Assembly: GCA_944358655.1 (NCBI GenBank)
Contig: CALVRO010000008.1
Span: 320-64,319 of the forward strand
Reading direction: 5' to 3'
Length of the DNA stretch: 64,000 bases
Source of the DNA: an uncultured Clostridia bacterium
Lineage (GTDB): Bacteria > Bacillota > Clostridia > Christensenellales > Borkfalkiaceae
How positions within the stretch are numbered: the first letter of the stretch is position 1; each line of letters opens with the position of its first letter. Of the stretch, positions 3,315 to 55,900 are shown piece after piece. Below the pieces are notes generated by a model. It did not search any database and had not been told where the DNA came from. It worked only from the letters and a program-made list of their open reading frames with translations. The position numbers and the translations under genes are program-made.

Positions 3315-6300
3315 ATGTCCGGTAAAAACAAAGTCAAAACATTGGCCTTATGTATTATTGCGCTGGTTTTCTTTATTGCCGTGGCTTTAGGGTGTTGGTT
3401 TTTGTTCAGCGAGAGCAAGTTGGATAAAATACAGCAATCGGCAATAAGCGAGCTTGACGCCAATGTCGGGCGCTACGACGAGAGCAAAATAGTGCTCGGC
3501 AACACGTCGCGCAGCGCGGCAACGGCAATGGCAGAAAAATACGGAGCAAAACTCAGAATAACCCAAGACGGCAGTTTTGCAACGCTGACTCTGCCGGAAG
3601 GCGTTACCATTCGCGATGTTTTTTCGGCCCGCGAAAATCGCGGGGATATTCCTTATATGTCGATAGACTATATGGCGAACGCGTCCGAGACAGATGAGGA
3701 CGGGCTCATGCCGGCTACTCCCGAGTACGACGTGTCGGACGATCTGTACGGATATCAGTCCTATCTCGATTACATAAATATCGGCGAGACGTGGAACAGC
3801 TATAGGGGCAGCGGCGTCACCGTGGCCGTCATAGACACGGGTATAGATACCGATCATCCCGAATTTGCAGGGAAGATAAGCGAGTATTCATACAACGCTA
3901 CCGAGGATAAGGTCGTAAAGGACTACGATCTGTCGGTAATAGAGGACGAGTACGGTCACGGCACCGCCGTGGCGGGGACTATTGCCGCGGCAATGGACGG
4001 CAGCGGCACCGTGGGTGTCGCGCCCGAAGTTTCTCTGCTCGTCATCAAGGCCGAGTGCAGTCCAAACGGAACGTTTTACAGGACATCCGACCTCGTGTTC
4101 GGTCTGTATTATGCCATAGAGCGCGATGCGGACGTCGTCAACATGTCGTTCGGGGGCTACGGCGGCAACGCCTACGCTTCGGCAACCAAGCTCGCTGTCG
4201 AAAGCGATATCGTCTGCGTGGCGGCTGCCGGTAACGACGCCACCTCGGTTTTAATGTATCCCGCCGCCGACGAAAACGTTATAGGCGTCGGAGCGCTGGC
4301 GGACGGCAGTTATGAACTTGCCGGCTATTCCAACTACGGCGATAATTCCGACGTGGTCGCTCCCGGTACGGTGTACACCACGCTGATGGGCGGAACATAC
4401 GGCACGATAAACGGAACCTCGTTTGCCTCTCCCATCGTGGCGGGCGCTATTGCGCTGTTGAAAAATCAGAGCGCATACATGGAGACGGAGGAAGTCCGCG
4501 AACTCCTATATGCCTCCACGGCAGATATCGGCAGTTTAGGTGACGACTGGTTCTTCGGTTACGGTGCACTCGACGTAAACGCGCTCGTCTGCGAGGAGAG
4601 GGGCATTGTGACCTTTGATATGCTCACCGACGAGGTGGAGGATATCCAAAGGGTATTCATCCGCGACCATACTTTGCAGAACTTGCCCGAGCCCGAGCGT
4701 AACTACGCCGTTTTCGACGGGTGGTATTACGATATCCATTGCACCGAGGAGCTAAATTGGTATTCCGACAGGTTCGTATCCGATATAACGTTGTATGCCA
4801 ATTGGGTCAACGAGGATGACGGGATACCCTATACATATGTCATTCTCGATGACGGAACGGTGGAAATAAGATCTTATACGGGTCACAGAAGATATATCAC
4901 CATCCCCGACAGGATAGAGGGGAGAGTGGTTTCGTCTATAGGAGATTTCGCCTTTGAAAACTGTTCGGAACTCAGGCAGATCAATCTTCCCGAGGGCCTC
5001 GTAAATATAGGCATGGGTGCGTTCAGCGGCTGTTCGCAGCTCAGCTCCGTTGCCATTCCGGACGGGGTCACATATATAGGTTCGCAGGCGTTTGCAAATA
5101 ACGCCCGCCTTGCCGAAGTGGCATGGTCGCCCGATATAGCCCTTACCACGATAGGCGACATGGCATTTGCCAACTGCGGCAGCCTTACGCGATTTGACGT
5201 GCCGCGCAACGTATCCTATCTCAACGGCTCGGCCTTTTTCGGGGCAAACGGCATGCGCATGTTTTCTGTGGCCGCAGGTAACGGGCATTTCTATGCGGAC
5301 GGCGGAGTGCTGTTCGATATTACGGGCGATACGCTTGTCGCCTATCCCGCGGGATTGAGCGGCGGGTACGATCTGCCCGAAAACGTGACGCGTATAGGTA
5401 CGCATGCTTTCGGGTATGCGCGGCTGACCGATATCGATCTGGGCAACGTGCAGACCATTGACAGATATGCCTTTGCGTATTCGCTTCTGGAGGAGCTGTC
5501 CATTCCCGACAGCGTGACGTATTTTGGCGAATATGCTTTCGCCTATAACTATTACCTTAAAGATCTGACGATAGGCAGGGGGGTATATTCCATAACAAAG
5601 TATGCCTTCATGTATGATTACGAACTTGCCGAACTCAATCTTCCCGCCAATATCATACAGATAGAAATGTGGGCGTTTGCCTACGCGGGCGTCGGACGGA
5701 TCAACTTTGCTCCCGACGGCGATTTGATGCAGATAGGCGACTATTCGTTCTATATGTGCGATATCCGCGAACTGGATATTCCCGGGTCGCTAATGTCGAT
5801 AGGCGGTGCGGCCTTCTCATGGAATACCGCCCTTTCGCAAGTAACATTTACCGACAACGCCAATTTACAGTATATAGGCGGGGAGGCTTTTGGCTACGCA
5901 TATTCCCTGAAGAGCATAACTCTGCCCGACGGCCTTCTCGAAGTGGGCGATTACGCCTTCCGCGACAGCGCGCTTGCGGGCACGGTTTGTATTCCGGCCT
6001 CGGTAAACCATATCGGATTCGGCGTGTTTGCCGAGTGCCATGACCTGGAAAATATCGAAGTGGACGCCGATAGCGCCTGCTATGTCGACGCGGACGGCGT
6101 TGTCTATACTTACGATCTTACAACGCTCGTCATGTATCCGGTAGGCAATATGCGCACTCTCTATGAAATACCCGAAGGCACGCTCGTCGTCAACGAGGGG
6201 GCGTTCTACGGGGCGCATGAGCTTACGGATATAGTCCTTCCTTTCTCGCTTACCAATATTGAAGCGTATGCGTTTTACGATGTCCCGAATATAACGCGGA

Positions 6301-9300
6301 TAGATATTCCCGACAACGTCATACAGATAAGCAATTACGCCTTTGCAAACGACAGGGCTCTCGAAAATATCAACTTCACCGAAAACAGCAAACTGCCCCG
6401 CATAAGCTACGCCGCGTTTGCGTACACGGGAATAACTTCCTTCCGCGTGCCCGCAAGCGTCACGTCCGTGGCGCAGTACGCATTCGAAGGCTGTAGCCGT
6501 CTGACCTCAATCACGTTTGTCGCAGGCAGCAAGCTGGAGAGCGTTACCGCCTATATGTTTTTGGGCTGCGACGCTTTGACCGAGGTAATATTTGAGGACG
6601 GCTCCGCGCTCTCGTCGATCCAGGCGCACGGCTTCGAGGGCATGAAAAAACTGAACAGGGTGGATTTCGGCGACGCCGCACTCAAAAATATAGATAATTT
6701 CGCCTTCCGCTATGATGAAGCGCTTCAGTCGATAACAATACCCGACGGAGTGGAGTATATAGGCAGATATGCCTTTTATATGGCCAAATCGTTGAGCGAG
6801 GTGACCTTGCCGGCGTCGGTCAACTTCATCGGCCGCAATGCTTTTTACGGCACCGATGACATAGACGTCTACTTCACGTCCGAGCTTCTGCCCGCAACTC
6901 TGCAGGAAAATTGGGACAGCGGAATAGCCGGCTACTACCTCAATGTGGAGAATGTCGCCGAGGAGGGCGATTGGAAATATGCCGTTTCCGCTTCCGGCAA
7001 CGTCACTATACTTGAATATAACGGTGAGTCGACCGAAATCGATTTGAACGACGTTCCCATAACGGCAGAGGGAGATATCGTGTCGATAGGCGGGTATGCC
7101 TTCTATGACAGCCCCGTCGAGAGCGTCATCCTGCCCGACACGCTCATTAACATTCAAAGATATGCCTTTGCGTACAGCGCGCTCGGCAGTATTTCGGTGC
7201 CGGCAGGCGTTACGTTCATCGGTGCATATGCCTTCTACAATACGCCCATAGAGAGCGCTACGTTTGCCGAAGGCAGCGCCCTCGGCCGTATAGAACAGTA
7301 TGCGTTCGCATATACGCAGTCCCTTTCCGGCATAGCCCTGCCCGCCGCGCTCAACGCCATAGGAACGTACGCCTTCCACAATTCGGGGATAGCCGCTCTG
7401 ACGTTTGCCGAGGACAGCATACTGACCGACATTCCCGCCCATTGCTTCAGCGCGACGTCGCTTGTCGGGGTCGTTTTGCCGGACAGCGTAGTTTATGTCG
7501 ACGACAGCGCCTTCCGCGACTGCCGCAATCTGGCATCGGTGACATTCGGCGGAGGCGAGGATTTGCAGCTTCATTCAAACGTGTTCTATAATACGGGCCT
7601 TACGTCGCTGAACATTCCTGCAAATGTGGAATATATAGGCGAATACACCTTTGTGGGGCTGGAGAAGCTTACGGCTTTCACCGTCGATGAGAATAACAAA
7701 TATTACAGCTCCGTGGACGGCGTCCTGTATAATAAGGACGGGTCTAAACTTATCGCCATGCCTGCGGGGAGGACGGGTAGTTTTACCGTGCCTGCCCATG
7801 TGGAGAGCATAGGTTTCGGCGCCTTCGAAAATTCATCCCTCTCCGAAGTGCTGTTCGAGGACGGTATAAATCTTCTTGCGTTGGGTTATCGTTCGTTCTA
7901 TAATGCCGAAAACTTAAAAACAATATCCATTCCCGCAAGCGTTGTATCCATAGACTACTATGCGTTTGCCGAGTGCGACAGCCTGTACGAGGTGGAGTTT
8001 GCGCCCGATAACAAGCTGACCGGCATATATGAAGGCGCCTTCCTCAACTGTGCCGACCTTACAAACATAGTTGTTCCCGACAGCATAGTTGAGATATCCG
8101 ATTACGCCTTCTATGGCTGTCGTTCGCTCGACAGTCTGCCCGTCTCCGATACGAGCGAACTGAAAGGCATATACGACTACGCCTTTGCGTATTCGGGGAT
8201 TGACGAGCTGGATCTGCCCGTGACAATTACCGATATAGGCGATTATGCCTTCATGGGCACCGATCTCACCTCGGTAACCGTTCCCGACGACAATAAACTA
8301 TACCTCAATATGGGTATAGGCGTGTTTGCCGACTGCGACCGCATGACGGAAATAACTCTGCCGTTTGTGGGCGCGGGGTACGAAGACGAGGATATAAGCT
8401 GGTTCGGGTATATATTCGGCGCGGGCTCGTACGAGGCGAACGCTTCGTATGTTCCCAAAAGCCTCGAGGAGGTCACCATCAGCGACGGACTCACGTTTAT
8501 AGGCGAAAACGCCTTCTACGGTCTTGCCGATTTAAAGCGCATAAACGTTCCGCACAGCGTAACGGCGCTGTATTTGGGCGCGTTTGAAGGTACTACCGCC
8601 ATATACGAACTTACAAATGTAATATCCATTTACGGTAGCGATACGCCTTCGCATTCATTCTTCGGTAACGGAATATCCGGCACCCTTCACCTTGCAGAAG
8701 GTATTACCAAGATAGGTAACTGGACGATGAACGATATGGGCAATCTCGAAGAGTTCATTATCCCCGATAGCGTAACGCTTATAGAATATTGCGCATTTTA
8801 TAATTGTGATAACCTTTTAAGCGTAACGATTGGTTCAGGCGTGCAGGAAATAGGCGGAGGGGCGTTCTATGGGTGTACGCGTCTCGCCAGCGTATATAAC
8901 AGAAGTTCCCTAAGTATAGAATTTGGGGCAGAGAGTAACGGGAATGTCGCCTCGTATGCCAAACTTCTTATATCTGCGGACGGAACTAAAACTTATAGCG
9001 ACGGCGAGTTTATCTATATCGATACTCCGGATGATTTCCGTTTTATCAAAGAAGGCGATAATTATACGCTTATCGATTACAACGGTGATAATGATATAGT
9101 TGAATTGCCTGTTTCTATAGAAGGCAATATGTATGAAATATATCTTGAGCGTAACACTCGCATTAAAAAGGTCATAGTTCCCGAAGGTATAACTCAAATA
9201 GGGAAAAATGCGTTTAACACATGCACCAATCTTGTTGAGGTCATTCTTCCCGAATCACTTTTAGCTATCGGTGAAAGTGCTTTTTATGATTGTACAGCGC

Positions 9301-12300
9301 TTAAGAAGGTAAATATTCCCTCGCAAGTAACCCAAATACCTTATCAATGTTTTAAAAATTGTTCATCGCTTGAAGAAATCATTATACCGAACGGTGTAAC
9401 TTATATCGGTGACAGCGCTTTCGAGGGGACGGCATTAAAGAGTGTTTCAATTCCCGATGGCGTAACATATGTAAGAGGAGGTGCGTTCAATAATTGCGCG
9501 GAATTGACTTCGGTCTATATCGGCAGCGGGCTGAACGAGTTTTCGTCAAGCACTTTTGCCGAATGCAATGATTTAAACGAACTGATATTTTCACCTGAAA
9601 ACATGAACTTTGTATCCATAAACAGCTTTGTTTATAATAAAGAAGTTACCGAAATATTGTTTGCGCCAAGAAATGCCTCTGGAACAATCATTTTGCCTGA
9701 TACTATCACTCATATAGGTGCCAGTGCATTTTCAGGATGTGCAAATATTACAGAGATAGTAATTCCGGAAAGTGTTACAGGTATTGATTCATCGGCTTTT
9801 AAAGATTGTAGAAGTCTTACGGAAATCAATTTGCCGGAAGGCATTACAAGTATATCTGGCGGTGTATTTGAAAATTGTTCGTCACTTTTACATATCAATA
9901 TCCCTTCTACGGTTACTACTATCGAGTCATACGCATTTGGGGGCTGTACAAAACTGTCTGATGTTGTTATTCCCGATGGTGTGGAATTTATAGGTAACAG
10001 GGCATTTTTTGAATGTAAAGCTATAGATAGAATTGTTCTTCCGGATAGTGTTGTTACTCTCGATGATGATGCCTTTAACTCCTGCTATGGACTTAAAGAA
10101 GTTGTCCTATCGGAAAACATGACGGAGATAGCTGTTGGTGTATTCTCGCACTGCTATAATCTCTACAGAATAACAATTCCTGCCGGCATACAGAGTATAG
10201 ACGGGACGTGGGCTTTCTATAATTGTTATAAGCTTTATGAGGTCATCAACAACAGCGCCTTGCCTATAACTTTCGATAATGCCGATTATGGCTGGCTTAC
10301 GCAGAAATGTAAGGTCATCATCAATGCCGACGGGACAAAGATGACAAGGTACGACGACGTAATAACCATAGACACCCCCGAAGGGTTTAGGTTTGTAAGG
10401 GAAAACGGTTATTATTCGCTCAACGATTACCTCGGCGAAAATACCGATATTGCCCTGCCCGCAGATATCGAAGGCAGCAGCTATTCCATAAATCTGCGCG
10501 GTGTGTCCAATATTCGCTCGGTGGTCGTTCCCGAAGGTTTTACGTTCATAGACGATTTCGCCTTCTACGGCTGCGTAAACCTTGAAAGCGTCGCCCTGCC
10601 TTCATCAATAGAGGTAATAGGCGGTTCGGCTTTTTCAGAATGTGTTTCGCTCAAAAACGTCGATATGCAGAGCGGAGTCAGACAGATAGGCTCCGACGCC
10701 TTCAGCAACAGTACTTCGCTTGAGGAAGCTCCCCTGCCCGACACCGTGACCCAAATAGGTTCCCGCGTATTCCAAAATACCGCGTTCTATAACGACGCGC
10801 AAAATTGGACCGACGGCGGCCTGTACAACGGCAAAAACCTTATCTCCGTCAGGAAGGACATTACTAATTTTGTCGTTGCCGGGGATACCGTTTGCATAGC
10901 CGAGGACGCGTTTGAAGATTGTTTTATCCTCACCCACGTCACTATCGGCGGCGAGCACCGCGGAGCGCTATACAACGTTACAAATCTCCGCACGCTCGTC
11001 CTTACAAGCGTACCTTCAAGCGTATTCGGTTACTTCGATCAATATGGCGCGTCCGTGCCCGTAACTTTGGAAAATATAGTCGTCAGGCTCGGCTGCGAGA
11101 TGGGCGGAAGCGGCACATTCAGCGGGATATATGGCGTAACTATTTACGTTGAAGAGAAGGAAAACAATGTGCTGTGGGATATAGACTATCCCAACTGGAA
11201 CAACAACAATTCCGTGTATTACGGCGGAGATTGGATAAAGGCTCGGTTTTACGACTTTGAAAACGGGCTGATCTCGGAAGATTATTACACTACCGAGCAG
11301 ATGATCCGTCAACCGTATGTCGGCGATATTATCCGCGGTGAAGAAAAATACGTCTTTGTGGGATGGGATATCGACGGCGACGGTGTTGCCGACACTCTGC
11401 CCGCAATGTCGGCATACGACATTACGGCCAAGGCCGTAATGGTCGATTCGGCCGTTACATACAGCATAGTATTCCTCGGTATGGATAACGAGGTGCTCTA
11501 TAGCTATGAAGCCGAATACGGAAGCCGCATAACACCGCCCGAGAGTGTGGAGATCAAGGGATATGACTTTATCGAATGGATAGGTTATGTGCCCGGGATG
11601 ACGGTGACGGGCGATGTGGAGTTCCTTTCCGAATGGCAGCATGTGGGAGGCGGGCATGAATATACCTGCACGACGGTTGACCCGACCTGTACCGAAGAGG
11701 GGTACGATCTCTATGTGTGCGCGGCCTGCGGTGATGAGTACCGCCAAAATATCGTAGAACCGCTCGGCCATACCTTCGGACAATGGGTGACGGAAACTCC
11801 CGCCTCCTGCAGTGAAGAGGGCCTCGCCTATCGTCTGTGTTCGGCATGCGGCTGCAGAGAGGAGAGCATTCTCGCGCCTGCGGGACATAGTTATGTTGTG
11901 ACGGGCGGCAGTAAAGCCACTTGCACCCATTCGGGCGAAAGAATATATACATGCTCGGTCTGCGGAAACGTAGTTAAGGAAGAGGTCGACCCTACGGGCC
12001 ATAACTACGAAAAGAAGGTCGTTAAAAAATCTATATTCCAACTCATCCTCGAAGCGCTTGCCAACGTATTCTTCGGATATGAGGGCGAGGATATATATTT
12101 CTTCCGCTGTGCCGACTGCGGCAAGATCATGACGGGTGAAAACATGCCCGTAATGGGCACGTCGTCATCAGGTTCACACACGCATGCCGGCGGAGAATGG
12201 ACTGTTCTTACCCCCGCATCATGTCAGGAAGGATACGAAGTGAAGTATTGCCTTATCTGCAACGAGGTCGCCGAGGCAAGAGTTGTCGCTCCGAACGGCA

Positions 12301-13871
12301 GCCATGTGTTCGGCGAATGGATACAGGAGGTCGCTCCCGATTGTCTTACTGTCGGCAGCGAACGCCGCGATTGCCTGTATTGCGACGCCTCCGAAACGCG
12401 CGAGCTCGCGGCTTTGGGGCATGATTTAGTTCACCACGAGGCCAAGTCGCCCACATGTACCGAAGTCGGCTGGGATGCGTACGACACCTGCTCGCGCTGC
12501 GATTATACGACATATAAAGAGATACCCGCGAAAGGCCACACGCCCGAGGCTATCCCCGCAAAGGCCGCGACTTGCACGGAGACGGGCCTCACCGAGGGCA
12601 GCAAGTGCTCCGTCTGCGGCGTTATTTTGGAGGAGCAGGAACCCATTCCCGCACTCGGCCATGCATGGAGTGAGTGGACGCAGACCAAAGCTCCGACGTG
12701 TACGGAAGTCGGCGAAGATCAGCGCATTTGTGCGAACGATCCTGCCCATGTTGAAACACGGACGGTTGGAGCGCTCGGGCATGATTTAGTTCACCACGAG
12801 GCCAAGTCGCCCACATGTACCGAGGTCGGCTGGGAGGCATACGACACATGCTCGCGCTGCGACTATACAACGTATAAGGAGATACCCGCGAAAGGCCACA
12901 CGCCCGAGGTTATCCCCGACAAGGCGGCGACCTGCACGGAGACGGGCATCACCGAGGGCAGCAAGTGTTCCGTCTGCGGAGATATTCTGGTAGAGCAGGA
13001 AACCATTCCCGCGCTCGGCCATGCGTGGAGCGAGTGGACGCAGACCAAGGCTCCGACATGCACGGAAGAAGGCGAGGAGCAGCGCATTTGTGCGAACGAT
13101 CCCGCCCATGTTGAAACACGGACGGTTGGAGCGCTCGGGCATGATTTAGTTCATCACGAGGCAAAGGCGCCCACCTGTACCGAAATCGGCTGGGAGGCAT
13201 ACGACACATGCTCGCGCTGCGATTACACGACATATAAAGAGATGCCCGCAAAAGGTCACACGCCCGAAACTATCCCCGGCAAGGCGGCGACCTGTACGGA
13301 GACGGGCCTCACCGAGGGCAGCAAGTGCTCCGTCTGCGGCGATATTCTGGTAGAGCAGGAAACCATTCCCGCACTCAATCATGACTATACAAACGTAGAG
13401 CCCGTATGGAGCTGGGACGGCCTGACTTCCGCAACGGCGTCCTTCGCCTGCACAAGGGAGGGCTGCGAGCACGTCGAAGTGATCACGGCTGTAATAACCA
13501 ACGAGGTGACGACTGCCGCGACCTGCGAGACCGAGGGCGTCAGAACGTACACCGCCACTGTAACGTTCGGCGAAAAGGCCTTCACAGACACCAAGACGGA
13601 AGCTATTGCTGCGCTCGGGCATGACTTCGGCGAGTGGGCTACTACCAGGGAGCCCACGGCTACCGAGGACGGCGAACAGCAACGCGAATGTTCGCGCTGC
13701 GGCGAGAAGCAAACGCAACCTGTTCCCGCTACGGGCGTGGGTGCGGAAGAAGAGGGGGCGGGCTGCGGCTCAGCCTGCAGTTCCGCGGGCCCCGTAAGCG
13801 GACTTATAGGGGTGTGCTCGGCTCTTGCGGTCGTAATGCTCGTCTCTGCAAAACGCAGAAAAAATAAATAA
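3315..13871 (+). CDS. Giant cell-surface protein: S8 subtilase + BspA-type LRR array + Cys/His-rich repeat modules + C-terminal GCGS/TM/basic tail
   Basis: 3518-aa ORF with RBS caaGGAGGatgacttATG. N-terminal hydrophobic signal-anchor, then a propeptide-like segment. Subtilase triad: D in AVIDTGID (~3834), H in YGHGT (~3957), S in GTSFASP (~4419). A Listeria/Bacteroides-type repeat follows (FDGWYYD). The recurring IP..V..IG..AF..C..L LRR units run from ~4870 to ~11000. Two more GW-type repeats lie at ~11300-11640. About 16 Cys-rich modules occupy 11640-13720. The tail is GAGCGS + hydrophobic helix + KRRKNK. Confidence 0.9.
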   Translation: MSGKNKVKTLALCIIALVFFIAVALGCWFLFSESKLDKIQQSAISELDANVGRYDESKIVLGNTSRSAATAMAEKYGAKLRITQDGSFATLTLPEGVTIRDVFSARENRGDIPYMSIDYMANASETDEDGLMPATPEYDVSDDLYGYQSYLDYINIGETWNSYRGSGVTVAVIDTGIDTDHPEFAGKISEYSYNATEDKVVKDYDLSVIEDEYGHGTAVAGTIAAAMDGSGTVGVAPEVSLLVIKAECSPNGTFYRTSDLVFGLYYAIERDADVVNMSFGGYGGNAYASATKLAVESDIVCVAAAGNDATSVLMYPAADENVIGVGALADGSYELAGYSNYGDNSDVVAPGTVYTTLMGGTYGTINGTSFASPIVAGAIALLKNQSAYMETEEVRELLYASTADIGSLGDDWFFGYGALDVNALVCEERGIVTFDMLTDEVEDIQRVFIRDHTLQNLPEPERNYAVFDGWYYDIHCTEELNWYSDRFVSDITLYANWVNEDDGIPYTYVILDDGTVEIRSYTGHRRYITIPDRIEGRVVSSIGDFAFENCSELRQINLPEGLVNIGMGAFSGCSQLSSVAIPDGVTYIGSQAFANNARLAEVAWSPDIALTTIGDMAFANCGSLTRFDVPRNVSYLNGSAFFGANGMRMFSVAAGNGHFYADGGVLFDITGDTLVAYPAGLSGGYDLPENVTRIGTHAFGYARLTDIDLGNVQTIDRYAFAYSLLEELSIPDSVTYFGEYAFAYNYYLKDLTIGRGVYSITKYAFMYDYELAELNLPANIIQIEMWAFAYAGVGRINFAPDGDLMQIGDYSFYMCDIRELDIPGSLMSIGGAAFSWNTALSQVTFTDNANLQYIGGEAFGYAYSLKSITLPDGLLEVGDYAFRDSALAGTVCIPASVNHIGFGVFAECHDLENIEVDADSACYVDADGVVYTYDLTTLVMYPVGNMRTLYEIPEGTLVVNEGAFYGAHELTDIVLPFSLTNIEAYAFYDVPNITRIDIPDNVIQISNYAFANDRALENINFTENSKLPRISYAAFAYTGITSFRVPASVTSVAQYAFEGCSRLTSITFVAGSKLESVTAYMFLGCDALTEVIFEDGSALSSIQAHGFEGMKKLNRVDFGDAALKNIDNFAFRYDEALQSITIPDGVEYIGRYAFYMAKSLSEVTLPASVNFIGRNAFYGTDDIDVYFTSELLPATLQENWDSGIAGYYLNVENVAEEGDWKYAVSASGNVTILEYNGESTEIDLNDVPITAEGDIVSIGGYAFYDSPVESVILPDTLINIQRYAFAYSALGSISVPAGVTFIGAYAFYNTPIESATFAEGSALGRIEQYAFAYTQSLSGIALPAALNAIGTYAFHNSGIAALTFAEDSILTDIPAHCFSATSLVGVVLPDSVVYVDDSAFRDCRNLASVTFGGGEDLQLHSNVFYNTGLTSLNIPANVEYIGEYTFVGLEKLTAFTVDENNKYYSSVDGVLYNKDGSKLIAMPAGRTGSFTVPAHVESIGFGAFENSSLSEVLFEDGINLLALGYRSFYNAENLKTISIPASVVSIDYYAFAECDSLYEVEFAPDNKLTGIYEGAFLNCADLTNIVVPDSIVEISDYAFYGCRSLDSLPVSDTSELKGIYDYAFAYSGIDELDLPVTITDIGDYAFMGTDLTSVTVPDDNKLYLNMGIGVFADCDRMTEITLPFVGAGYEDEDISWFGYIFGAGSYEANASYVPKSLEEVTISDGLTFIGENAFYGLADLKRINVPHSVTALYLGAFEGTTAIYELTNVISIYGSDTPSHSFFGNGISGTLHLAEGITKIGNWTMNDMGNLEEFIIPDSVTLIEYCAFYNCDNLLSVTIGSGVQEIGGGAFYGCTRLASVYNRSSLSIEFGAESNGNVASYAKLLISADGTKTYSDGEFIYIDTPDDFRFIKEGDNYTLIDYNGDNDIVELPVSIEGNMYEIYLERNTRIKKVIVPEGITQIGKNAFNTCTNLVEVILPESLLAIGESAFYDCTALKKVNIPSQVTQIPYQCFKNCSSLEEIIIPNGVTYIGDSAFEGTALKSVSIPDGVTYVRGGAFNNCAELTSVYIGSGLNEFSSSTFAECNDLNELIFSPENMNFVSINSFVYNKEVTEILFAPRNASGTIILPDTITHIGASAFSGCANITEIVIPESVTGIDSSAFKDCRSLTEINLPEGITSISGGVFENCSSLLHINIPSTVTTIESYAFGGCTKLSDVVIPDGVEFIGNRAFFECKAIDRIVLPDSVVTLDDDAFNSCYGLKEVVLSENMTEIAVGVFSHCYNLYRITIPAGIQSIDGTWAFYNCYKLYEVINNSALPITFDNADYGWLTQKCKVIINADGTKMTRYDDVITIDTPEGFRFVRENGYYSLNDYLGENTDIALPADIEGSSYSINLRGVSNIRSVVVPEGFTFIDDFAFYGCVNLESVALPSSIEVIGGSAFSECVSLKNVDMQSGVRQIGSDAFSNSTSLEEAPLPDTVTQIGSRVFQNTAFYNDAQNWTDGGLYNGKNLISVRKDITNFVVAGDTVCIAEDAFEDCFILTHVTIGGEHRGALYNVTNLRTLVLTSVPSSVFGYFDQYGASVPVTLENIVVRLGCEMGGSGTFSGIYGVTIYVEEKENNVLWDIDYPNWNNNNSVYYGGDWIKARFYDFENGLISEDYYTTEQMIRQPYVGDIIRGEEKYVFVGWDIDGDGVADTLPAMSAYDITAKAVMVDSAVTYSIVFLGMDNEVLYSYEAEYGSRITPPESVEIKGYDFIEWIGYVPGMTVTGDVEFLSEWQHVGGGHEYTCTTVDPTCTEEGYDLYVCAACGDEYRQNIVEPLGHTFGQWVTETPASCSEEGLAYRLCSACGCREESILAPAGHSYVVTGGSKATCTHSGERIYTCSVCGNVVKEEVDPTGHNYEKKVVKKSIFQLILEALANVFFGYEGEDIYFFRCADCGKIMTGENMPVMGTSSSGSHTHAGGEWTVLTPASCQEGYEVKYCLICNEVAEARVVAPNGSHVFGEWIQEVAPDCLTVGSERRDCLYCDASETRELAALGHDLVHHEAKSPTCTEVGWDAYDTCSRCDYTTYKEIPAKGHTPEAIPAKAATCTETGLTEGSKCSVCGVILEEQEPIPALGHAWSEWTQTKAPTCTEVGEDQRICANDPAHVETRTVGALGHDLVHHEAKSPTCTEVGWEAYDTCSRCDYTTYKEIPAKGHTPEVIPDKAATCTETGITEGSKCSVCGDILVEQETIPALGHAWSEWTQTKAPTCTEEGEEQRICANDPAHVETRTVGALGHDLVHHEAKAPTCTEIGWEAYDTCSRCDYTTYKEMPAKGHTPETIPGKAATCTETGLTEGSKCSVCGDILVEQETIPALNHDYTNVEPVWSWDGLTSATASFACTREGCEHVEVITAVITNEVTTAATCETEGVRTYTATVTFGEKAFTDTKTEAIAALGHDFGEWATTREPTATEDGEQQRECSRCGEKQTQPVPATGVGAEEEGAGCGSACSSAGPVSGLIGVCSALAVVMLVSAKRRKNK
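12411..13378 (+). repeat. In-frame tandem repeat, 360-bp unit x ~2.7, inside the giant gene
   Basis: The lines starting at 12421, 12781 and 13141 align base-for-base (atgatttagttcaccacgaggccaagtcgcc...) with only scattered substitutions. Each unit encodes 120 aa, which is three Cys/His modules. Confidence 0.92.
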
Positions 13872-18112: not shown

Positions 18113-18140
18113 ATTTATCCTCGCATGGGCTAAACTTTGT

Positions 18141-18677
18141 TTAACTGTTTTGATAATCTTGTGATTTTACCGCGGTCAAAATTTCTTCGGCGACGGCGCG
18201 GCGCGAAAGCCGCCTGTCCATCGCCTGTTTTTCGAGGAAGCGGTGCGCTTCCTCTTCGTTCATGCCGCGCTCCAACAGTACGAGTTTGGCGCGGTGCACG
18301 AGTTTTTCGCACTCCAATCTCTCGCGGAGGCGGTCAAGCTCTTCGCAAACTGCAAACAGCCGTTCGCCCGCCCTGGCTTCCGCCCGCAGAACGCCCGCGA
18401 GCACGGGAAAGGGCACGTCGTGCGGCAGCACCGCCGCCCCGCTGCCCTTGAGCAGGCGCTCCGCTTCGGGGGTATTCTCATTTCTGACGATGACGACCGC
18501 TCCGCCCCGCGATGTGCGGGCGAGCACTTGCCTTTCCCAGCCGCATTTTTTGAGCTGCGGTATAAAGAGCGCCGCGTCACCGCCGTTTTCGACGGGCATA
18601 AATCCGCTCTTTTCAAGGTTTTCTTTTAGTTTCGGAAGCACCGTCGGATAATCGCAGTATAGGGCAATGCGTATCAT
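18141..18677 (-). CDS. ANTAR-domain RNA-binding regulator with a receiver-like N-domain
   Basis: C-terminal LRERLECEKLVHRAKLVLLERGMNEEEAHRFLEKQAMDRRLSRRAVAEEIL is a clear ANTAR motif. The start was set at ATG 18677 (MIRIAL) because AGGAGG lies 6 nt upstream; the ORF-track start at 18698 is a TTG. Confidence 0.85.
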   Translation of the reverse strand: MIRIALYCDYPTVLPKLKENLEKSGFMPVENGGDAALFIPQLKKCGWERQVLARTSRGGAVVIVRNENTPEAERLLKGSGAAVLPHDVPFPVLAGVLRAEARAGERLFAVCEELDRLRERLECEKLVHRAKLVLLERGMNEEEAHRFLEKQAMDRRLSRRAVAEEILTAVKSQDYQNS

Positions 18678-18701
18678 GGCGACCTCCTGCCGCCCCAAAA
18701 A

Positions 18702-19421: not shown

Positions 19422-19436
19422 CTCATATCTCCGCTC

Positions 19437-28611: not shown

Positions 28612-28620
28612 CAAGAAAAC

Positions 28621-41215: not shown

Positions 41216-44200
41216 ATGAACAAAACCAAACGGATCGGCGCGGCCTCGGCAGCCATTCTGCTCGCATTGAGTATGAGCGCAACGGCAATGGTCACCCCCA
41301 TGGCTTCGGCGGCTACCGCCGGATCGACGGGCGGCAAGTACTACACCGACTTTGCGACGTACGAAGAAGAGCTCGAGTATGCCGAAAGGCTCAATCAGGA
41401 GATCTTTGCCGACTCTGTAGTTCTGATGAAGAACAAGAACAACGCTCTGCCGCTCAATATCGACACGGAGAGCGACATCTCGCTCGTGGGCATGTTGTCG
41501 TACAACATCATAACGGGCGGCACGGGCTCGGGCGCGGGCAACGGCGGTGATAGACTTATCACCATCGAGGACAACCTCAAGGCGACCGGTTTCAATATGA
41601 ATGAAAAGGCGGCCAACGCCTACAAGAATTCCACCCTCAGCACGGGTTCGGAAGCTCCCTCGTCCATTCTCAACAGCGCGAGCGGTTCCTTTAAATTCTA
41701 CGGCGACGCCGTCATCTGGACTATAGGCCGCGTGGGCGGCGAGGGCAACGACCTTGCATACTTCAATACAGACACCAACAAGGATACTTCCAAGCACGCC
41801 CTTGAACTCAACGACAACGAGCTCGACATGCTCGAATACCTCGAAGGCCTCAAGGACGCGGGCACGATAAAGAAATTGGTCGTCCTCGTCAACTCGGCCA
41901 ACGTATTTGAAATGGCTCCCCTCGAGGACAACGACAACGTCGACGCCATCCTCTGGATAGGTCAGCCCGGTGCGGCGGGTCTCGGCGGTCTGGGCAGAGT
42001 GCTGACGGGCGAAGTCAGCCCCTCGGGCAGGACGGCCGACATATGGAACGCCAACCACAAGAACGACCCCACATGGCAGAACACCGGTACGGCCGGAATG
42101 AACGGTACCGACCCCGACACCGGAGAGGCGTACACCAGCACGGCCTTCTACAAGAACGCAGAGGGCGAATATGTGGCCATCAAGGGTCGCGACAGCCGTG
42201 CGGGCATGGAAGAGTCCGGTAAGGTGATCGAATACGAAGAGGGCATATACATGGGCTATAAGTATTACGAGACGGCGGCAGCCGACGGAGTGCTTACCGA
42301 CCCTGACGTAGGCTACGTTGCCGCCGAGGGCACAATACCCGCCCAGCACGGCGCCGACGCATACTACAACCGTTCGACGGGCGTCGTATATCCCTACGGC
42401 TACGGCCTCAGCTACACCTCCTTCTCGCAGGAGTTGGTTACCACGGCCGGCGAGCTCGAAGCCGCCGTCAACGGCAAGAGCAAGCTCGACGACAAGGTCA
42501 GCGTACAGGTCACCGTCACCAACACGGGCAACGTTGCGGGCAAGGAAGTTGTTCAGCTCTACGTTCACGCCCCCTACATCGACGGCGGCATAGAAAAGGC
42601 CGAAGTTTCGCTTGTATCCTTCGGCAAGACGGGCCTTCTTCAGCCCGGCGAGAGCGAGACGGTCACCATGCAGGTGCGTCTCGGCGACATAGCCTCCTTC
42701 GACTATGACGACGCCAACGGCAACGGCTGGAAGGGCTACGAAATAGAGGCGGGCAACTACGAGTTCAGGCTTCAGAAGAACTCGCACGAGGAGATCGACG
42801 CCCTCGAAGTCGCCCTCACCGCAAAGACCACCACGCTCGACAACGACGGCGACGCCACCAACAACACTCCCTTCTCCAACGGCGACGACTTCGACTCGCT
42901 GCTCAACATCAAGGATAAGTCCACTGGCAAGGTAGACACCCCCACGGGCTATGAAGCAGGCGACTTCGACGTGACGGGCGAAGTGGGCGGCAAGATGACC
43001 ATAATGTCCCGCGCCGAAGACAAGGGCGGCCTTGCAGGCACCTTCCCCACGGCTCCCAAGGCCTCGGATATGCTGTACGGCAAGAGGGTCATCGAACTCC
43101 TTTACTGCTATGACGATATGGCCGACGTAGCCACCGAAACTTCAAGGTACACCAGCTACGCCGACAGCCGCAGCGACAAGCCCACCGACCCTTGGTACAA
43201 GACCGAAGCCGATATCCCCGCTTCGTGGACTCAGGGTGCGGGCACCAAGACTGCCGACGGCAAGTACGAGGTGCAGCTCGCCAACATGACGGGCATAGCC
43301 GCCGACGAAGAAGAGTGGGTAGAGTTCATGAACCAGTTTACATACGAAGAACTCATCACCATAATCAGCAGCAGCGGTTCGCCTGCAGTCACTTCGGTAG
43401 GCAAACCTTCTCTCAGCGCAGCCGACGGCCCCGGCCAGCTCTCCAACGGTACCTTCTGGTGCTGCGAAGTCAACATAGGTTCCACATGGGATCTTTCCCT
43501 CGCCGAAAAGCAGGGCCTTGCCATAGGCAACGAGTCGCTGTTCATGGGCATCACCGGTTGGTGGGGCCCCGGCGTCAACATCCATCGTTCTCCCTTCGGC
43601 GGCAGAAACTTCGAATATTATTCGCAGGATACCGTTCACGCAGGCCTCATGGTCGCCGCGGTAGTCAGCGCCTACGAGTCCAAGGGCGGCATAGCTTACC
43701 TTAAGCACTTTGCCGTCGACGACATGGAAAACGTCCGCTACGGCTGCGGCACGTTCGTAGACGAGCAGGCAATGCGCGAAAATTATCTCAAAGTATTCGA
43801 GTACGGCGTAAAGGAAGGCGGCGCGGGCGCCATGATGGCCTCGCACAACAGAATAGGCGCCATACAGAACTACGGCAACTGGGCTCTCACCACGGCCGTA
43901 GCCATCAATGAATGGGGCTTCGACGGCTATATCCAGTCGGATATGTACGTCGGCTACTCCAGGTGCTATTCGGTTCTCCGCAGCGGCGCCAGCATACTCA
44001 TGGGCAGCTTCAGCGGCAACAACAAGGTAACGGGCACATGGGACGCCACAGTCACCCGTGCAAACGGCGGCGTGGGCGCTGTCCGCGACGGCGTAGCCGG
44101 TGCCGACGGCACTGTTCCCGTATCCTACACGCAGTGGTACGCCGTGCGCAACGCGGCTCAAAGGCTGCTCTACATACAGGCCAACAGCAGCGTGCTCGAT

Positions 44201-45133
44201 AACGGCACCGACACTTCGGTATTCACCGACAAGACCTTCGAAGCCACTCAGAACGTTGAGTTCACCGCCTCCGTTGGGGTAAAGGCCGAGGATGTCAAGG
44301 CAACCGAACTTTCTTACAATCTTGAAGGCGCTCTGCCCGCAGGTCTGACTTTCGACTCCCTTACGGGCGAAATAAGCGGTACTCCCACCGAGTCCGGTGA
44401 GTTCACGGCAAGCGTAGAACTCGTAGCCGACGGCTGGGTGACCAAGACTGCCACGCTCACCTTCAAAATCAAACCCACCATCGAGGTCACGGTGACCACC
44501 GCCGAACCTGCCGTAGGCAGCGCGTTCGCGGCCACCGTTACCAACAACATCCCCGACTTCAAAGTCGTCGACAGGACCGAGGTAGAGGAGAACGAAGAGG
44601 AGGGCACCTTCTACACCGCAGCTTCGTTCAGCGCCGAGGGTCTGCCTGCAGGCCTTACGATAGACGAGGCCACGGGCGCCATCTCCGGCACACCCACCGA
44701 GGCGGGCACCTTCACCGTCATCGTCAAGCTCAACTACACCAAGACGATCGCCACACAGGGTGGCTTCGGCCCCGGCCCGTCCGACTTCGAACCCTTCGGC
44801 TTCGGCCCCGGCGGCCCCAGCGGCGGCGGCTTCCAGCTCAACGACGAACATGGCAGCTATGTGGCCGAAATAGTCATCACCATAGCGGGCACGGGCGAGG
44901 AGACCCCCGAACCTCCCGCAGGCGGCGTAACTGCCGAAGATATCGCCGATATCAACGACAGGCTCGACGCGCTTGAAGAAGCCATCTCCAAGGACAGCGG
45001 CTCCACCGACGGCGAAACTTCCGAAGGCGGCTGCGGCAGCACCGTGGGCTTTGCTTCGCTGGCTCTGGCAGTGCCCGTAATAGCTGCGGCATGGCTTGTG
45101 GCTGCAAAGGCACGCAAGAGGCAGGATAAGTAA
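41216..45133 (+). CDS. Secreted glycoside hydrolase family 3 (GH3-A), permuted domain order, He_PIG-type Ig repeats, GCGS/TM/basic tail
   Basis: RBS AGGAGG. Signal peptide MNKTKRIGAASAAILLALSMSATAMV. Domain order: alpha/beta-sandwich start VVLMKNKNNALPL ... GYGLSYTSF; then Fn3-like VTVTNTGNVAGKEVVQLYV; then the barrel domain GPGVNIHRSPFGGRNFEYYSQD, KHFAVDD and nucleophile context GYIQSDM. Two LPAGLTxD..TG.ISGTPTE.G Ig-like repeats. The tail is EGGCGS + TM + KARKRQDK. Confidence 0.92.
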   Translation: MNKTKRIGAASAAILLALSMSATAMVTPMASAATAGSTGGKYYTDFATYEEELEYAERLNQEIFADSVVLMKNKNNALPLNIDTESDISLVGMLSYNIITGGTGSGAGNGGDRLITIEDNLKATGFNMNEKAANAYKNSTLSTGSEAPSSILNSASGSFKFYGDAVIWTIGRVGGEGNDLAYFNTDTNKDTSKHALELNDNELDMLEYLEGLKDAGTIKKLVVLVNSANVFEMAPLEDNDNVDAILWIGQPGAAGLGGLGRVLTGEVSPSGRTADIWNANHKNDPTWQNTGTAGMNGTDPDTGEAYTSTAFYKNAEGEYVAIKGRDSRAGMEESGKVIEYEEGIYMGYKYYETAAADGVLTDPDVGYVAAEGTIPAQHGADAYYNRSTGVVYPYGYGLSYTSFSQELVTTAGELEAAVNGKSKLDDKVSVQVTVTNTGNVAGKEVVQLYVHAPYIDGGIEKAEVSLVSFGKTGLLQPGESETVTMQVRLGDIASFDYDDANGNGWKGYEIEAGNYEFRLQKNSHEEIDALEVALTAKTTTLDNDGDATNNTPFSNGDDFDSLLNIKDKSTGKVDTPTGYEAGDFDVTGEVGGKMTIMSRAEDKGGLAGTFPTAPKASDMLYGKRVIELLYCYDDMADVATETSRYTSYADSRSDKPTDPWYKTEADIPASWTQGAGTKTADGKYEVQLANMTGIAADEEEWVEFMNQFTYEELITIISSSGSPAVTSVGKPSLSAADGPGQLSNGTFWCCEVNIGSTWDLSLAEKQGLAIGNESLFMGITGWWGPGVNIHRSPFGGRNFEYYSQDTVHAGLMVAAVVSAYESKGGIAYLKHFAVDDMENVRYGCGTFVDEQAMRENYLKVFEYGVKEGGAGAMMASHNRIGAIQNYGNWALTTAVAINEWGFDGYIQSDMYVGYSRCYSVLRSGASILMGSFSGNNKVTGTWDATVTRANGGVGAVRDGVAGADGTVPVSYTQWYAVRNAAQRLLYIQANSSVLDNGTDTSVFTDKTFEATQNVEFTASVGVKAEDVKATELSYNLEGALPAGLTFDSLTGEISGTPTESGEFTASVELVADGWVTKTATLTFKIKPTIEVTVTTAEPAVGSAFAATVTNNIPDFKVVDRTEVEENEEEGTFYTAASFSAEGLPAGLTIDEATGAISGTPTEAGTFTVIVKLNYTKTIATQGGFGPGPSDFEPFGFGPGGPSGGGFQLNDEHGSYVAEIVITIAGTGEETPEPPAGGVTAEDIADINDRLDALEEAISKDSGSTDGETSEGGCGSTVGFASLALAVPVIAAAWLVAAKARKRQDK

Positions 45134-52938: not shown

Positions 52939-55900
52939 ATGTATCAAGCAACAAAATCGAAAAAAACCGCTCGTTTTGTCGCTGCAACGCTGTCGGCGGC
53001 GTTATTGTTGAGCAGTGCGGCTCTCGTAAACGTCAACATCGCCAGCGCAGATGAGGGCGAACCGCTGTTCGTTTCCGACTACAGCAGCAAGGCCGAGGCG
53101 GTGCAGGCCGGTCTCGACCTCAATCTGCAGATCGCCGAAGAGGGAATGATCTTAGTGAAGAACGTGAACAATGCTCTTCCCGTGGCTACGACGGCTGCGA
53201 ACAAGACCAAAGTGACGGTTTTAGGCTATGCGGGCGTCAATCCCAATGCAGGCGCAAGCGCCAACGGCGGCGACTCTTCGGCAGGCTCGGCTATCGCGCT
53301 CGAAAACGTTTACGGCAGTCTCGAACAGGCCAACTACGAGCTCAATCCCATCGTCAAGGCTCAGTATGAGGCGTGGAACAAGATGGCGGACGCCGAAGGC
53401 AAGCTCATAGCTGCCTCCGATTCTGCAATAGCCAACCTTTCGGGCGCAGACAGCTTTGCCGAAAAGGCGAAGGGCTGGACAAACCTCGACGAATATGGTA
53501 CGGCGTTCGTAGTGCTCTCCAAGGGCGCTAACGCGACGGGCGACGGCGAGGGCGAGAGGGTGCACTCCCTTCAGCTCGACGAGGAACAGTTCGATCTCGT
53601 CGATTACGCCGTAGAAAACTTCGATAAGGTAGTAGTGCTCGTCAACAGCTGCACACCCATAGAACTCCAGGCAATAAATAACAATACGGGCGTAGACGCC
53701 ATAGTCATGATAGGTGAACCGGGCGACAACGGCTTTGCCGCGCTCGGCAAGGTGCTCAACGGTACCGTCAATCCTTCCGGCCGCCTCACCGATACCTGGG
53801 CGGTAGATTTTACAAAGAATCCTTCCTATGTCAACTTCAATGCAGCCGCCGGCACCGACATCATGGGTGCGGGCAACCCTTGGGGCACGGACGGCAACGG
53901 CCAGGAGGTGGGCTATACCAAGTACACCGTCAACGGTGAAGAGGTGGATACCTGGGCTGTAGGCTACGAAGAGGGCATCTATGTAGGATATCGCTGGTAC
54001 GAAACGGCCTACGCCGAGATCGCCGCCGGCAATTACGCACCCACTGGCTATACCGCGGCCGACGCCGACGATTGGTATGCCGACAGCGTGGTATATCCCT
54101 TCGGCTACGGCATGTCCTATACTACCTTCGATTGGGAAGTGTTCCCCGTTCAGGCCGACGGCGCTATAGCAAAGGGCGATACCCTTGTCTACGACGTCAG
54201 AGTGACCAACACCGGCGCCGTTGCGGGCAAGGAAGTAGTCCAGCTCTATTACACGGCTCCCTATACCGAGGGCGGGATAGAAAAAGCCGCCGTCAACCTC
54301 GGCGACTTTGCCAAGACCGATATCCTTGCCCCCGGCGAGAGCCAGGTGGTAAGACTTGAGATCGCCGTAAACGATATGGCGTCCTACGACGAGGTCACCG
54401 ATAAGACGTATGTGCTCGACGCGGGCAACTACGTTATCAATATTGCCGCAAACGCTCACGAAGCGACGGTGGGTGCAGAGGACAAATATACTTATAACCT
54501 CGCCGTAAAGGCGCTCGTCGACACGGCCGTCACCGGCAACGAGGTCACTAACCAGCTCGACGACGTCACCCAAGGCTTCAACGAGGAATACACGGCTCTC
54601 TCCCGCGAAGATTTCGCGGCCACCATGCCCGATACTCCCGACGCGACCAGAGCCATAACCGAGGCCGAATACGCCGAGTTTGCGTTTGAAAACGGCGACT
54701 TCGACGACAAGTATGCCGCCGATCTCGACGTAACGTACGCAACGACGACGGAGGGCAGGGAGGATAAGTACGAGATAATCCTCTCCGACATGATAGGCGC
54801 CGACGCCGACGATCCCCGCTTCATGGAGATGGTCGAGCAGCTCACCATAGAGGAGATGGTAGAGTTCATCAACGGCGGCGGCTTCCATTCGCTTGCAATA
54901 GATTACCTCGGCGTTCCCTATGCGCACAACACCGACGGCCCCAAGGGCTGGACAGGATCGGGCGTAGACGCAAACGACCGCTTCAATTACTTCTCGTCCG
55001 AACCCATGATAGCCGCTACTTACAACAAGGAGCTGTTCTATGAAATGGGTCTCATGATAGGCGAACAGGGCCTTTGGGGCAACAGCACGCAGGAGAGCGG
55101 CACGGCCTATTCCTACACCGGCTGGTACGCTCCCGGCATGAACATCCACCGCTCGCCTTTCGACAGCCGCTACACCGAGTACTACTCCGAAGATCCCGTT
55201 CTTACGGGCATGACGGCTGCCAATATCTCGCTCGGCGCTAAGGAAAAGGGCTGCTACATAACCATGAAGCACTTCGCTTTCCATAACGACGGCGGCGGCG
55301 CTTCCACCTACCGCGCGGGCGCCATCTCGGCAGACAGCAATCCCGAAGCCGGTCTCGCCGCATGGATGACCGAACAGACCGCCCGTGAGATCTACCTCAA
55401 GGGCTACCAGATCTGCACCGAGGACGGCGAGGCGACCTATGTAATGGGCTCCTTCACCCGTATAGGCAACACATGGTGCGGCGGCTCCTATGCCATTAAC
55501 AAGGCCATACTCCGCGACGAATGGGGCTTCAAGGGCGCAATGGTAACGGATATAGTTCTCTATAACTCCGTCAACGCATATCAGCTTGTCACCTCGGGCG
55601 GCGGCCTCATGCTCACCGGCTTTATGGGCGGCATCTATCTCGACGCGGCTGCGATCAACGCCATGGAAGATGGCAAGACCAAGGATGTCATCATCTACGG
55701 TATGCAGCAGAGCATAGCGCAGAACCTCTACATGGTCGCCAACTCCAATGCCATGCAGATACCCAAGGGCGCAAAGATAATTTACGACCCCACTACCAAG
55801 AACGAATTCGACGAGGACGTCGAACTGACTCTTGCCGACGCAAAGCAGGGCGAGGCTTACACTTCCGTGAATATCGCCGTCGCCACATACAATACAAACT

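Follow-up and report, generated by a model that had tools for sequence, protein, structure and literature searches.

A Gly-Cys C-terminal tail as a candidate tripartite sorting signal of uncultured gut Bacillota

Three proteins encoded in a 64,000-nucleotide stretch of contig CALVRO010000008.1 (the window), from an uncultured Clostridia bacterium, finish in the same kind of C-terminal tail, in which a Gly-Cys pair is followed by a hydrophobic helix and a cluster of basic residues. The carriers are a very large protein with a subtilase S8 domain and leucine-rich repeats (LRR), referred to below as the giant, and two glycosidases of family GH3, GH3-A and GH3-C. By analogy with known tripartite systems, we consider it on balance probable that these tails represent a widespread, uncatalogued tripartite C-terminal sorting or anchoring signal of uncultured gut Bacillota, whose Gly-Cys would be read by a dedicated enzyme, likely with modification of the Cys and subsequent removal of the helix. 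Judged by sequence comparison, the tail is a real, statistically significant domain confined to the C-terminus, and a member of a large family rather than a local coincidence.

The tails quoted in an initial annotation of the window are reproduced exactly by the translated ends of all three open reading frames (ORFs). The giant (3315-13871) ends in ...EEEGAGCGSACSSAGPVSGLIGVCSALAVVMLVSAKRRKNK, GH3-A (called start 41216, stop 45133) in ...SEGGCGSTVGFASLALAVPVIAAAWLVAAKARKRQDK and GH3-C (probable start 52939, stop 56268) in ...DEGGCGSFIGGVTAFAAAIPVIAAVAYIRRKRS*. Their common plan is GCGS, about 22 uncharged residues and a K/R cluster. In the giant, the tail (13740..13871, + strand) is composed of an acidic spacer, G-C-G-S (13761-13772), an ACSSAGPVSG insert which brings a second Cys, a hydrophobic helix and KRRKNK before the stop. 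The GH3-A tail (45010..45133, + strand) comprises a spacer finishing in GETSE, G-G-C-G-S (GCGS at 45029-45040), a helix of ~23 residues and KARKRQDK, and the GH3-C tail (56160..56268, + strand) a D/P/T-rich spacer, G-G-C-G-S (GCGS at 56176-56187), a helix and RRKRS, both again directly followed by the stop. Counted over all six frames, the window contains GCGS at just four sites. Three belong to the tails, and the fourth, at 38215, sits in a non-coding, stop-interrupted frame. The three tails are encoded by differing codons, which indicates that their likeness is kept at the protein level, by selection on the peptide, and does not stem from a recent DNA duplication. The three carriers had been described as unrelated exoproteins. 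This has to be corrected, since sequence comparison identifies GH3-A and GH3-C as paralogues, with the giant unrelated to both; the window therefore holds two unrelated carrier families, not three.

To place the tail among other proteins, we relied on homologues of GH3-A and on profile searches. Among 120 listed GH3-A homologues (32-100% identity), G-C-[GNSK]-[GS]-x-[IV] followed by a helix and a basic end was present in 79-81, down to 33% identity, with the Cys 29-35 residues from the C-terminus. In a full-length alignment of 43 GH3 sequences, the tail residues G1272 and C1273 (GH3-A) were invariant, as are residues of the catalytic domain. The spacer before the tail could not be aligned among the homologues, in which it is acidic, PT/PE-rich or collagen-like, and a strain variant of GH3-C (P0001) has a changed spacer and a conserved tail. 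A scan of genome contigs with the GH3 alignment returned, among the matches listed, mostly tail-less GH3s of Lachnospiraceae and Actinobacteria, which served as negative controls, together with seven GC-tailed loci (four clear and three weak); the species of the window itself was not among the matches listed.

Searching with the tail by itself through a word index yielded just 7 candidates and one strain variant, short tails being invisible to such an index, so that an exhaustive profile search was needed. A 45-position profile built from 62 tails was compared with 1.84 billion (1.84e9) representative proteins. At E<=1e-3 it retrieved 515 proteins, with a lowest E-value of 3.8e-9. The best 150 of the 515 matches all lay at the extreme C-terminus, ending 0-5 residues from the protein end, and of the 144 new sequences that these include, 143 have G-C at 26-38 residues from the end. 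A rebuilt, 36-position profile from independent sequences has the consensus EEKGGCGSSIGGTSAIVAALALLGAAVVVLKKKKED.

We then asked how the window compares with this family. The independent profile, made from 143 tails of other organisms and none from the window, was scored on 10,895 six-frame ORFs of the window and of fetched loci. The tails of GH3-C (32-39 bits) and GH3-A (28-35 bits) were both matched at the extreme C-terminus; GH3-B and GH3-D, the other GH3s of the window, whose C-terminal helices are plain, reached only 6-13 bits there. Loci of Lachnospiraceae, Actinobacteria and other groups, ~1.4 Mb in all, gave no false match. As judged by these profile comparisons, the tails of GH3-A and GH3-C are canonical family members and that of the giant is a divergent one.

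The initial annotation had put forward an invariant G-C-G-S. This holds for the three tails of the window; family-wide, only G-C is invariant, followed by [GNS]-[SG]-x-[IV]. Across the 143 tails, position -3 is K or E, -2 is G, S or K, -1 is the invariant Gly and 0 the invariant Cys. After the Cys come G, or less often N or S, at +1 (138/143), S or G at +2 (143/143), S, V or A at +3 and I or V at +4 (130/143), giving a juxtamembrane signature [EK]-[GSK]-G-C-[GNS]-[SG]-[SVA]-[IV]. At least six positions around the Cys are thus informative, more than a helix cap would need. The Cys lies ~30 residues from the end and is separated from the first K/R by a median of 24 mostly uncharged residues. Acidic residues are nearly absent from this interval (D or E in only 10/143 tails), meaning that no hydrophilic spacer is present, and the helix directly follows the signature without a charged spacer. 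It is Ala/Gly-rich and aromatic-poor, with 51% G/A/S/T and 3% aromatic residues, compared with 40% and 11%, respectively, in the plain C-terminal helices of homologous GH3s. Behind it comes a charged end with a median of 6 residues, rich in lysine (412 K vs 179 R), typically KKKED and often finishing in E-D.

As a yardstick we used the eight criteria given by Haft for tripartite C-terminal sorting signals (bioRxiv 10.1101/2023.06.07.544157, section 5). They include a hydrophobic transmembrane segment, a terminal basic cluster and an N-terminal signal peptide on most carriers, as well as carriers that are alike only in the tail and homologues elsewhere without the signal or with a different one (bioRxiv 10.1101/2023.06.07.544157). 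The tail displays all eight properties. Its C-terminal position is evident from the best 150 matches and from the distance of the Cys to the end, and its signature motif is conserved, with G-C invariant and +1, +2 and +4 constrained. Several copies per genome could be counted on genome fragments: three in the window, three in 13 kb of another locus (L092) and two or three in each of three more (L086, L096 and L136). Loci with clustered carriers are usually carbohydrate-utilisation loci. The transmembrane segment and the basic cluster (criteria four and five) are both present, the basic end being K-rich rather than R-rich. Signal peptides (criterion six) were detected by a simple heuristic in 130 of 146 carriers of at least 400 residues, with most failures due to truncated gene calls or heuristic misses, and are carried by GH3-A and GH3-C.

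As for criterion seven, no similarity besides the tail, 40 carriers contain 25 different Pfam families, and only the tail G-C is invariant in their joint alignment. The carrier families include He_PIG, Flg_new, Big_2, Big_3, GH3, GH42/F5_F8, endonuclease I, GDSL lipase, CBM9, CarboxypepD_reg and pectate-lyase-like proteins. Finally, other lineages lack or replace the signal (criterion eight). GH3 homologues carry NPLTG (L037), a plain helix or no tail, and relatives of the giant's Cys-rich repeats have IPSTGE or SPQTGD (L100 and L109) or SLH domains instead. Among such homologues, the tail and sortase-type signals replace one another, a behaviour expected of interchangeable sorting modules. 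Its presence at the C-terminus of unrelated carriers, the signal peptides and its multiplicity all agree with the candidate new Cys-based tripartite sorting signal proposed in the initial annotation.

All carriers are metagenomic. The labelled metagenome-assembled genomes (MAGs) among their hosts are Clostridiales, Bacilli, Bacillales, Candidatus Coproplasma, Christensenellaceae, Bacillota from termite and uncultured Clostridia from chicken and rabbit, and one weak tail match came from a MAG labelled Acholeplasmataceae, a label that is unverified. Clostridia do therefore carry the tail, as had been suggested; the proposed restriction to a Clostridia lineage is too narrow in view of the MAGs labelled Bacilli and Bacillales and of the weak match in the one labelled Acholeplasmataceae. 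The MnmA of the window is 79-81% identical to MAG proteins of Candidatus Coproplasma sp., and by this sequence identity the genome of the window is that of a relative of Candidatus Coproplasma, placed by the NCBI taxonomy in Clostridia, Eubacteriales incertae sedis. Among 80 species-representative GH3 loci, the tail was found in no cultured or RefSeq strain, which may explain its absence from curated libraries.

The initial annotation had also called for a comparison with catalogued sorting models, by which the tail might have turned out to be a described signal with a known enzyme. It did not: no NCBIfam (release 20) or Pfam model describes the tail, and in an NCBIfam scan of the 62 tails at E<=10 no model matched most members. 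In the window, the giant's tail gave a sub-threshold LPXTG_anchor match only and the two GH3 tails gave chance-level NCBIfam matches (E 0.05-9). Among the 62 tails, the commonest NCBIfam matches were LPXTG_anchor (26), Rumino_NPXTG (22) and GVDTG_CTERM (13), the latter two below their cut-offs (23.5-29 bits). Where aligned positions were shown, the matches to these three models covered the helix and basic end and left out the start of the model with its signature. Pfam yielded only weak Gram_pos_anchor (PF00746) matches, in 31/62 tails. No above-cut-off match including the signature was obtained with the other catalogued domains (Synerg-, JDVT-, CGP-, PEP-, PGF-, GlyGly- and Firmicu-CTERM, Rumino_NPXTG, GVDTG and others). 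One GC tail without LPXTG (P0106) exceeded the TIGR01167 LPXTG_anchor cut-off (17.2 vs 15.9 bits), and the best E-value among the 62 (1.3e-4) suggests that a few further tails do so. Such tails are an annotation hazard, as automated pipelines could mislabel them as LPXTG cell-wall anchored. An incomplete literature search, which provides absence of evidence only, found no description of a Gly-Cys C-terminal signal of Firmicutes; it did find work on MYXO-CTERM, Synerg-CTERM, JDVT-CTERM and CGP-CTERM and experimental work on myxosortases.

These weak matches raise the question of a divergent sortase substrate, in which G-C would stand in place of LPXTG and a specialised sortase would attach the protein to peptidoglycan. 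The helix and KRKED-type end are indeed LPXTG-like, as reflected by the Gram_pos_anchor (31/62) and TIGR01167 (26/62) matches, the motif-to-end length of ~30-35 residues is the same as in LPXTG signals, and homologues in other Firmicutes carry NPXTG- or LPXTG-type signals. However, the matches cover profile positions ~7-34 only, never the LPXTG pentapeptide. The motif has no conserved Pro or Thr and is followed by no hydrophilic spacer, acidic residues after it being restricted to the 10 tails mentioned above. A weak tail match in a MAG labelled Acholeplasmataceae, a wall-less group, also argues against peptidoglycan attachment, with the reservation that the label is unverified, and no sortase gene was found near any substrate examined. 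We regard a sortase substrate as very improbable, and the earlier statement that the tail is not LPXTG stands. According to Haft (bioRxiv 10.1101/2023.06.07.544157), signals cut by membrane-embedded enzymes have no hydrophilic spacer, unlike LPXTG, and a tail without a spacer fits this pattern.

The G at -1, the C at +1 and the G/S/N that follow resemble positions -1 to +3 of a lipobox. The ordinary lipoprotein machinery (Lgt, possibly Lsp) could then modify the tail Cys with diacylglycerol, approaching a lipobox-like site from the C-terminal side. Two classical lipoproteins are encoded in the same genome, with the lipoboxes FVGC|VGPGG (45252-46181) and FAAC|GNGDEGG (56432-57112), so the lipoprotein pathway is present, and its Cys also lies at the outer face of the membrane. 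The tail nevertheless departs from the lipobox pattern [LVI][ASTVI][GAS]C: positions -3/-2 are E/K/G/S and not L/V/I and A/S, the site is C-terminal, and the helix follows the Cys. In known Lgt substrates the helix is N-terminal to the Cys, a chain direction opposite to that of the tail. Furthermore, an Lsp cut N-terminal to the Cys would free the ectodomain instead of anchoring it. Lipidation by Lgt appears improbable to us, though a little less so than a sortase variant.

In our preferred reading, a dedicated processing pathway, the protein would be exported by Sec, driven by the N-terminal signal peptide that is seen in the sequences. The C-terminal helix would stop transfer with the basic cluster in the cytoplasm, and by the positive-inside rule of topology Gly-Cys would then lie on the outer side of the membrane. 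The signature G-C-[GNS]-[SG]-x-[IV] would be recognised by a membrane enzyme with a dedicated housekeeping role, presumably encoded away from its substrates. By analogy to MYXO-CTERM, myxosortase and its relatives, the Cys thiol would be modified, probably with a lipid, and the helix then cut distal to the Cys by an intramembrane endopeptidase. The large ectodomain of a glycosidase, protease or adhesin would, again by analogy, end up tethered to the cell surface by its C-terminus.

Several observations weigh against this pathway. The window yielded no sortase, CPBP protease or rhomboid, in agreement with the earlier remark that no sortase, rhombosortase or CPBP protease is visible there. Nor do Pfam lists of 13 neighbourhoods of tail-bearing genes contain a candidate of these three kinds. 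Motifs of CPBP proteases (EExxxR...FxxxH...HxxxN) and of sortases (TLxTC), sought by regular expression, gave nothing in strict form and noise only in relaxed form. An enzyme encoded elsewhere, as the initial annotation expected, is in line with these results, and its absence beside the substrates fits a one-to-many housekeeping system. We infer cleavage and Cys modification by analogy alone, and processing would bring no obvious benefit, since a plain helix already anchors a protein in a monoderm cell. Among the 120 listed GH3 homologues, 18 have a Cys-less helix at the same position, which suffices there, and 23 have no tail. To our knowledge, all known Cys-type signals come from diderm bacteria or archaea. 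Finally, the giant's tail, while aligning end to end with the independent profile and keeping GCGS intact, scores only 6.7 bits, owing to the ACS insertion after GCGS and to a large bias correction. The giant's gene was also called on other contigs; a metagenome-contig scan for orthologous tails with its last 400 residues retrieved only distant Cys-rich-repeat relatives with other C-termini, plus one 70%-identical fragment ending before the tail.

An alternative is a permanent C-terminal transmembrane anchor whose helix is never removed. Gly-Cys would then have a role other than sorting, for example in an intermolecular disulfide, in the sensing of metal or redox state, or in reversible S-acylation. 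For type-I anchoring in a monoderm cell, a signal peptide, an ectodomain, a helix and a basic end suffice, as the 18 Cys-less helices of homologues and the plain helices on GH3-B and GH3-D illustrate, and no processing enzyme was found near any substrate examined. A functional Cys next to a permanent helix does not readily account for the conservation: besides the invariant G-C, four further positions at a constant distance from the end are conserved in hundreds of unrelated proteins and across order-level divergence, as is typical of an enzyme recognition site and not of a generic anchor. The composition of the helix also differs from that of the plain anchors of homologues, and the tail swaps with sortase-type signals. 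This permanent anchor is the main rival explanation, Lgt lipidation and a sortase variant being less likely, and we consider it rather unlikely.

One further membrane peptidase is encoded in the window. The ORF at 37007-37762 (+), blank in Pfam and missed in the initial annotation, is a SipW/archaeal-type signal peptidase I (TIGR02228, 75.4 bits vs a cut-off of 51.85). It is directly preceded by a 246-residue secreted protein of unassigned family (36189-36929), an arrangement resembling a SipW and cognate substrate pair in the style of TasA. It is probably unrelated to the tails, and we rejected it as their processing enzyme: its partner is the secreted protein beside it, the other tail neighbourhoods lack it, and it acts on substrates of the opposite membrane orientation.

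Display on Gram-positive cells is taught as a matter of sortase and LPXTG, lipoproteins, wall binding of the SLH or LysM type, or plain helices. Here, uncultured gut lineages put a sharply conserved Cys signature on their biggest glycosidases, proteases and adhesins, and the tail is probably a new way of fixing proteins to the Gram-positive cell surface. As far as the literature that we found goes, it is the first Cys-type tripartite signal found for monoderm Bacillota, its processing being putative. If the tail is processed, Cys-type signals like MYXO-CTERM would extend from diderms and archaea to monoderm Firmicutes, with a new housekeeping enzyme to find. A bolder proposal is that abundant uncultured gut Bacillota (among them Coproplasma-/Christensenellales-like Clostridia and Mollicutes-like Bacilli) use a new C-terminal lipidation and sorting pathway, in place of sortase, as their main display route for large enzymes and adhesins, with an enzyme pair that modifies Gly-Cys and removes the helix. 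This is possible, albeit doubtful; if true, it would be the first Cys-type tripartite system in monoderm bacteria, and the enzyme might fall outside the CPBP/myxosortase family. The 36-position consensus can be used to flag surface-exposed carbohydrate-active enzymes in gut metagenomes and to correct LPXTG mis-annotation, and the tail profile is an input for a phylogenetic-profiling hunt for the enzyme.

The domains of the three carriers were assigned with Pfam. The giant (3315..13871, + strand, 3518 residues) consists of an N-terminal hydrophobic signal or anchor, subtilase S8, Flg_new, 16 BspA-type LRR_5 blocks, Cys-rich repeats and the tail. The repeats, in tandem just before the tail (~12000-13700, +), are ~50-60 residues long (...GH.L.HH.A..PTCTE.GW..Y..C.RC...), of CxxC type and zinc-ribbon-like; their relatives in other metagenomic proteins (loci L097-L135) precede LPXTG-type signals, SLH domains or other ends. 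GH3-A (41216..45133, + strand) has 1305 residues from the gene callers' start and is made of a Sec signal peptide (41216-41311, ...PMASA/A), a permuted GH3 (GH3_C, Fn3-like, GH3_N), two He_PIG domains, the spacer and the tail; the exact 1305-residue product is present on 9 contigs. GH3-C (52939..56268, + strand) has 1109 residues from MYQATK..., the start at 52939 being chosen because of a 1109-residue gene call in another locus (L001), and shows a Sec signal peptide (52939-53049, ...NIASA/D), a permuted GH3, He_PIG, a PDVDPGPD spacer and the tail. Both GH3 signal peptides are of the AxA type and look cleavable.

The permuted domain order is found in all four GH3s of the window (41216-45133, 46198-49137, 52939-56268 and 57140-60199): Glyco_hydro_3_C comes first, then the Fn3-like domain, then the N-terminal catalytic domain of Glyco_hydro_3 ~400 residues later. 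The GH3s are arranged in a cassette present in two copies (38798-49137 and 52939-62422, +), in the order GC-tailed GH3, small N-terminal lipoprotein, and second GH3 with a plain helix at both its N- and C-terminus. The lipoproteins have a lipobox FVGC or FAAC and a G/N/E-rich linker, belong to no Pfam family and possibly represent a carbohydrate-binding module. A LytTR response regulator and a histidine kinase precede one copy of the cassette and follow the other, and the cassette order is repeated in distant relatives (loci L091, L138 and L139). In the tail-less GH3 paralogues (49050-49137 and 60090-60199) and in homologues from many loci (L011-L090), the plain end helix is preceded by P-[IVT]-W-[QVWE] (PVWQIV, PIWQVV, TPWWQIAL, PTWV...). 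This motif spans Lachnospiraceae, Oscillospiraceae, Actinomycetota and others, and is a second, different conserved juxtamembrane feature.

Two other regions of the window were noted. An RHS/YD-repeat polymorphic-toxin locus (28600-35840, +) encodes a protein of 1486 residues whose C-terminal region is hydrophobic and rich in Gly/Ala, and a second, RHS-repeat protein of 543 residues, each followed by a small, immunity-protein-like membrane protein with two helices (33061-33528 and 35340-35840). On the opposite strand, a nitrogen-assimilation block (16661-26193, -) contains a PurF-like amidotransferase, an ANTAR regulator, glutamate synthase parts (GXGXG, Glu_synthase with Fer4, and GATase_2), an Amt-PII fusion and a type III glutamine synthetase.

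How, then, does the tail compare with named systems? With the lipobox of Lgt/Lsp substrates it shares an invariant Cys after Gly or Ala at the outer face of the membrane, beside a single helix with a basic cytoplasmic end, and the G/S/N-rich residues after the Cys recall the lipobox linker. It differs in its opposite polarity, the helix coming after the Cys, in the absence of a hydrophobic residue at -3 and in its C-terminal site. With LPXTG/NPXTG signals it shares the phylum, the cargo (subtilases, glycosidases, LRR and Ig-repeat adhesins), the overall length, a similar helix and a KRKEE/KKKED end, as well as interchangeability among homologues. Unlike LPXTG signals, it lacks the pentapeptide L-P-x-T-G, conserves neither Pro nor Thr and continues from the motif without a charged spacer, and the acyl-enzyme chemistry of sortase at Thr has no counterpart in G-C.

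Closer parallels are provided by Synerg-CTERM/MrtS, JDVT-CTERM/MrtJ and CGP-CTERM/MrtA (bioRxiv 10.1101/2023.06.07.544157), all Cys-containing tripartite signals with a motif abutting the helix and a low-complexity linker before it. The Synerg-CTERM motif is a cluster rich in Ser and Gly that closes with an invariant Cys (bioRxiv 10.1101/2023.06.07.544157). The Cys is thus last in Synerg-CTERM and is part of C-G-P in the archaeal CGP-CTERM, whereas four conserved positions come after the Cys in the tail. The taxa differ as well, being Synergistota, sporadic Proteobacteria and Thermococcales for Synerg-, JDVT- and CGP-CTERM, respectively, and the matches of the Synerg-CTERM model TIGR04564 to the tails are marginal (4/62, best E-value 0.017).

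The nearest motif-inclusive match among hidden Markov models is MYXO-CTERM (TIGR03901; formerly GC_trans_RRR, TIGR03382; myxosortases MrtX, MrtC and MrtP), covering profile positions 2-33 of 34. The tail scores below its cut-off (best 16-17 vs 20 bits), with 8/62 tails matching at E<=10 and none of those of the window. MYXO-CTERM is limited to Myxococcota and Bradymonadales, which are diderms, and there type II secretion carries the cleaved protein to the outer membrane. The hosts of the tail are Bacillota MAGs, its end is Lys-rich, often with E-D last, and a myxosortase homologue is not among the findings. Both are tripartite in build, with an invariant Cys (often in G-C) inside a Gly/Ser-rich signature, a helix that follows it without a spacer, and basic residues at the end. 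Both also occur in many copies per genome, on unrelated secreted proteins. At times MYXO-CTERM also has a second nearby Cys, as in the giant's tail. Cleavage of MYXO-CTERM by the CPBP protease MrtX depends on the Cys (PMC11980579), and prior lipidation of this residue has been proposed (PMC11980579; also discussed by Haft).

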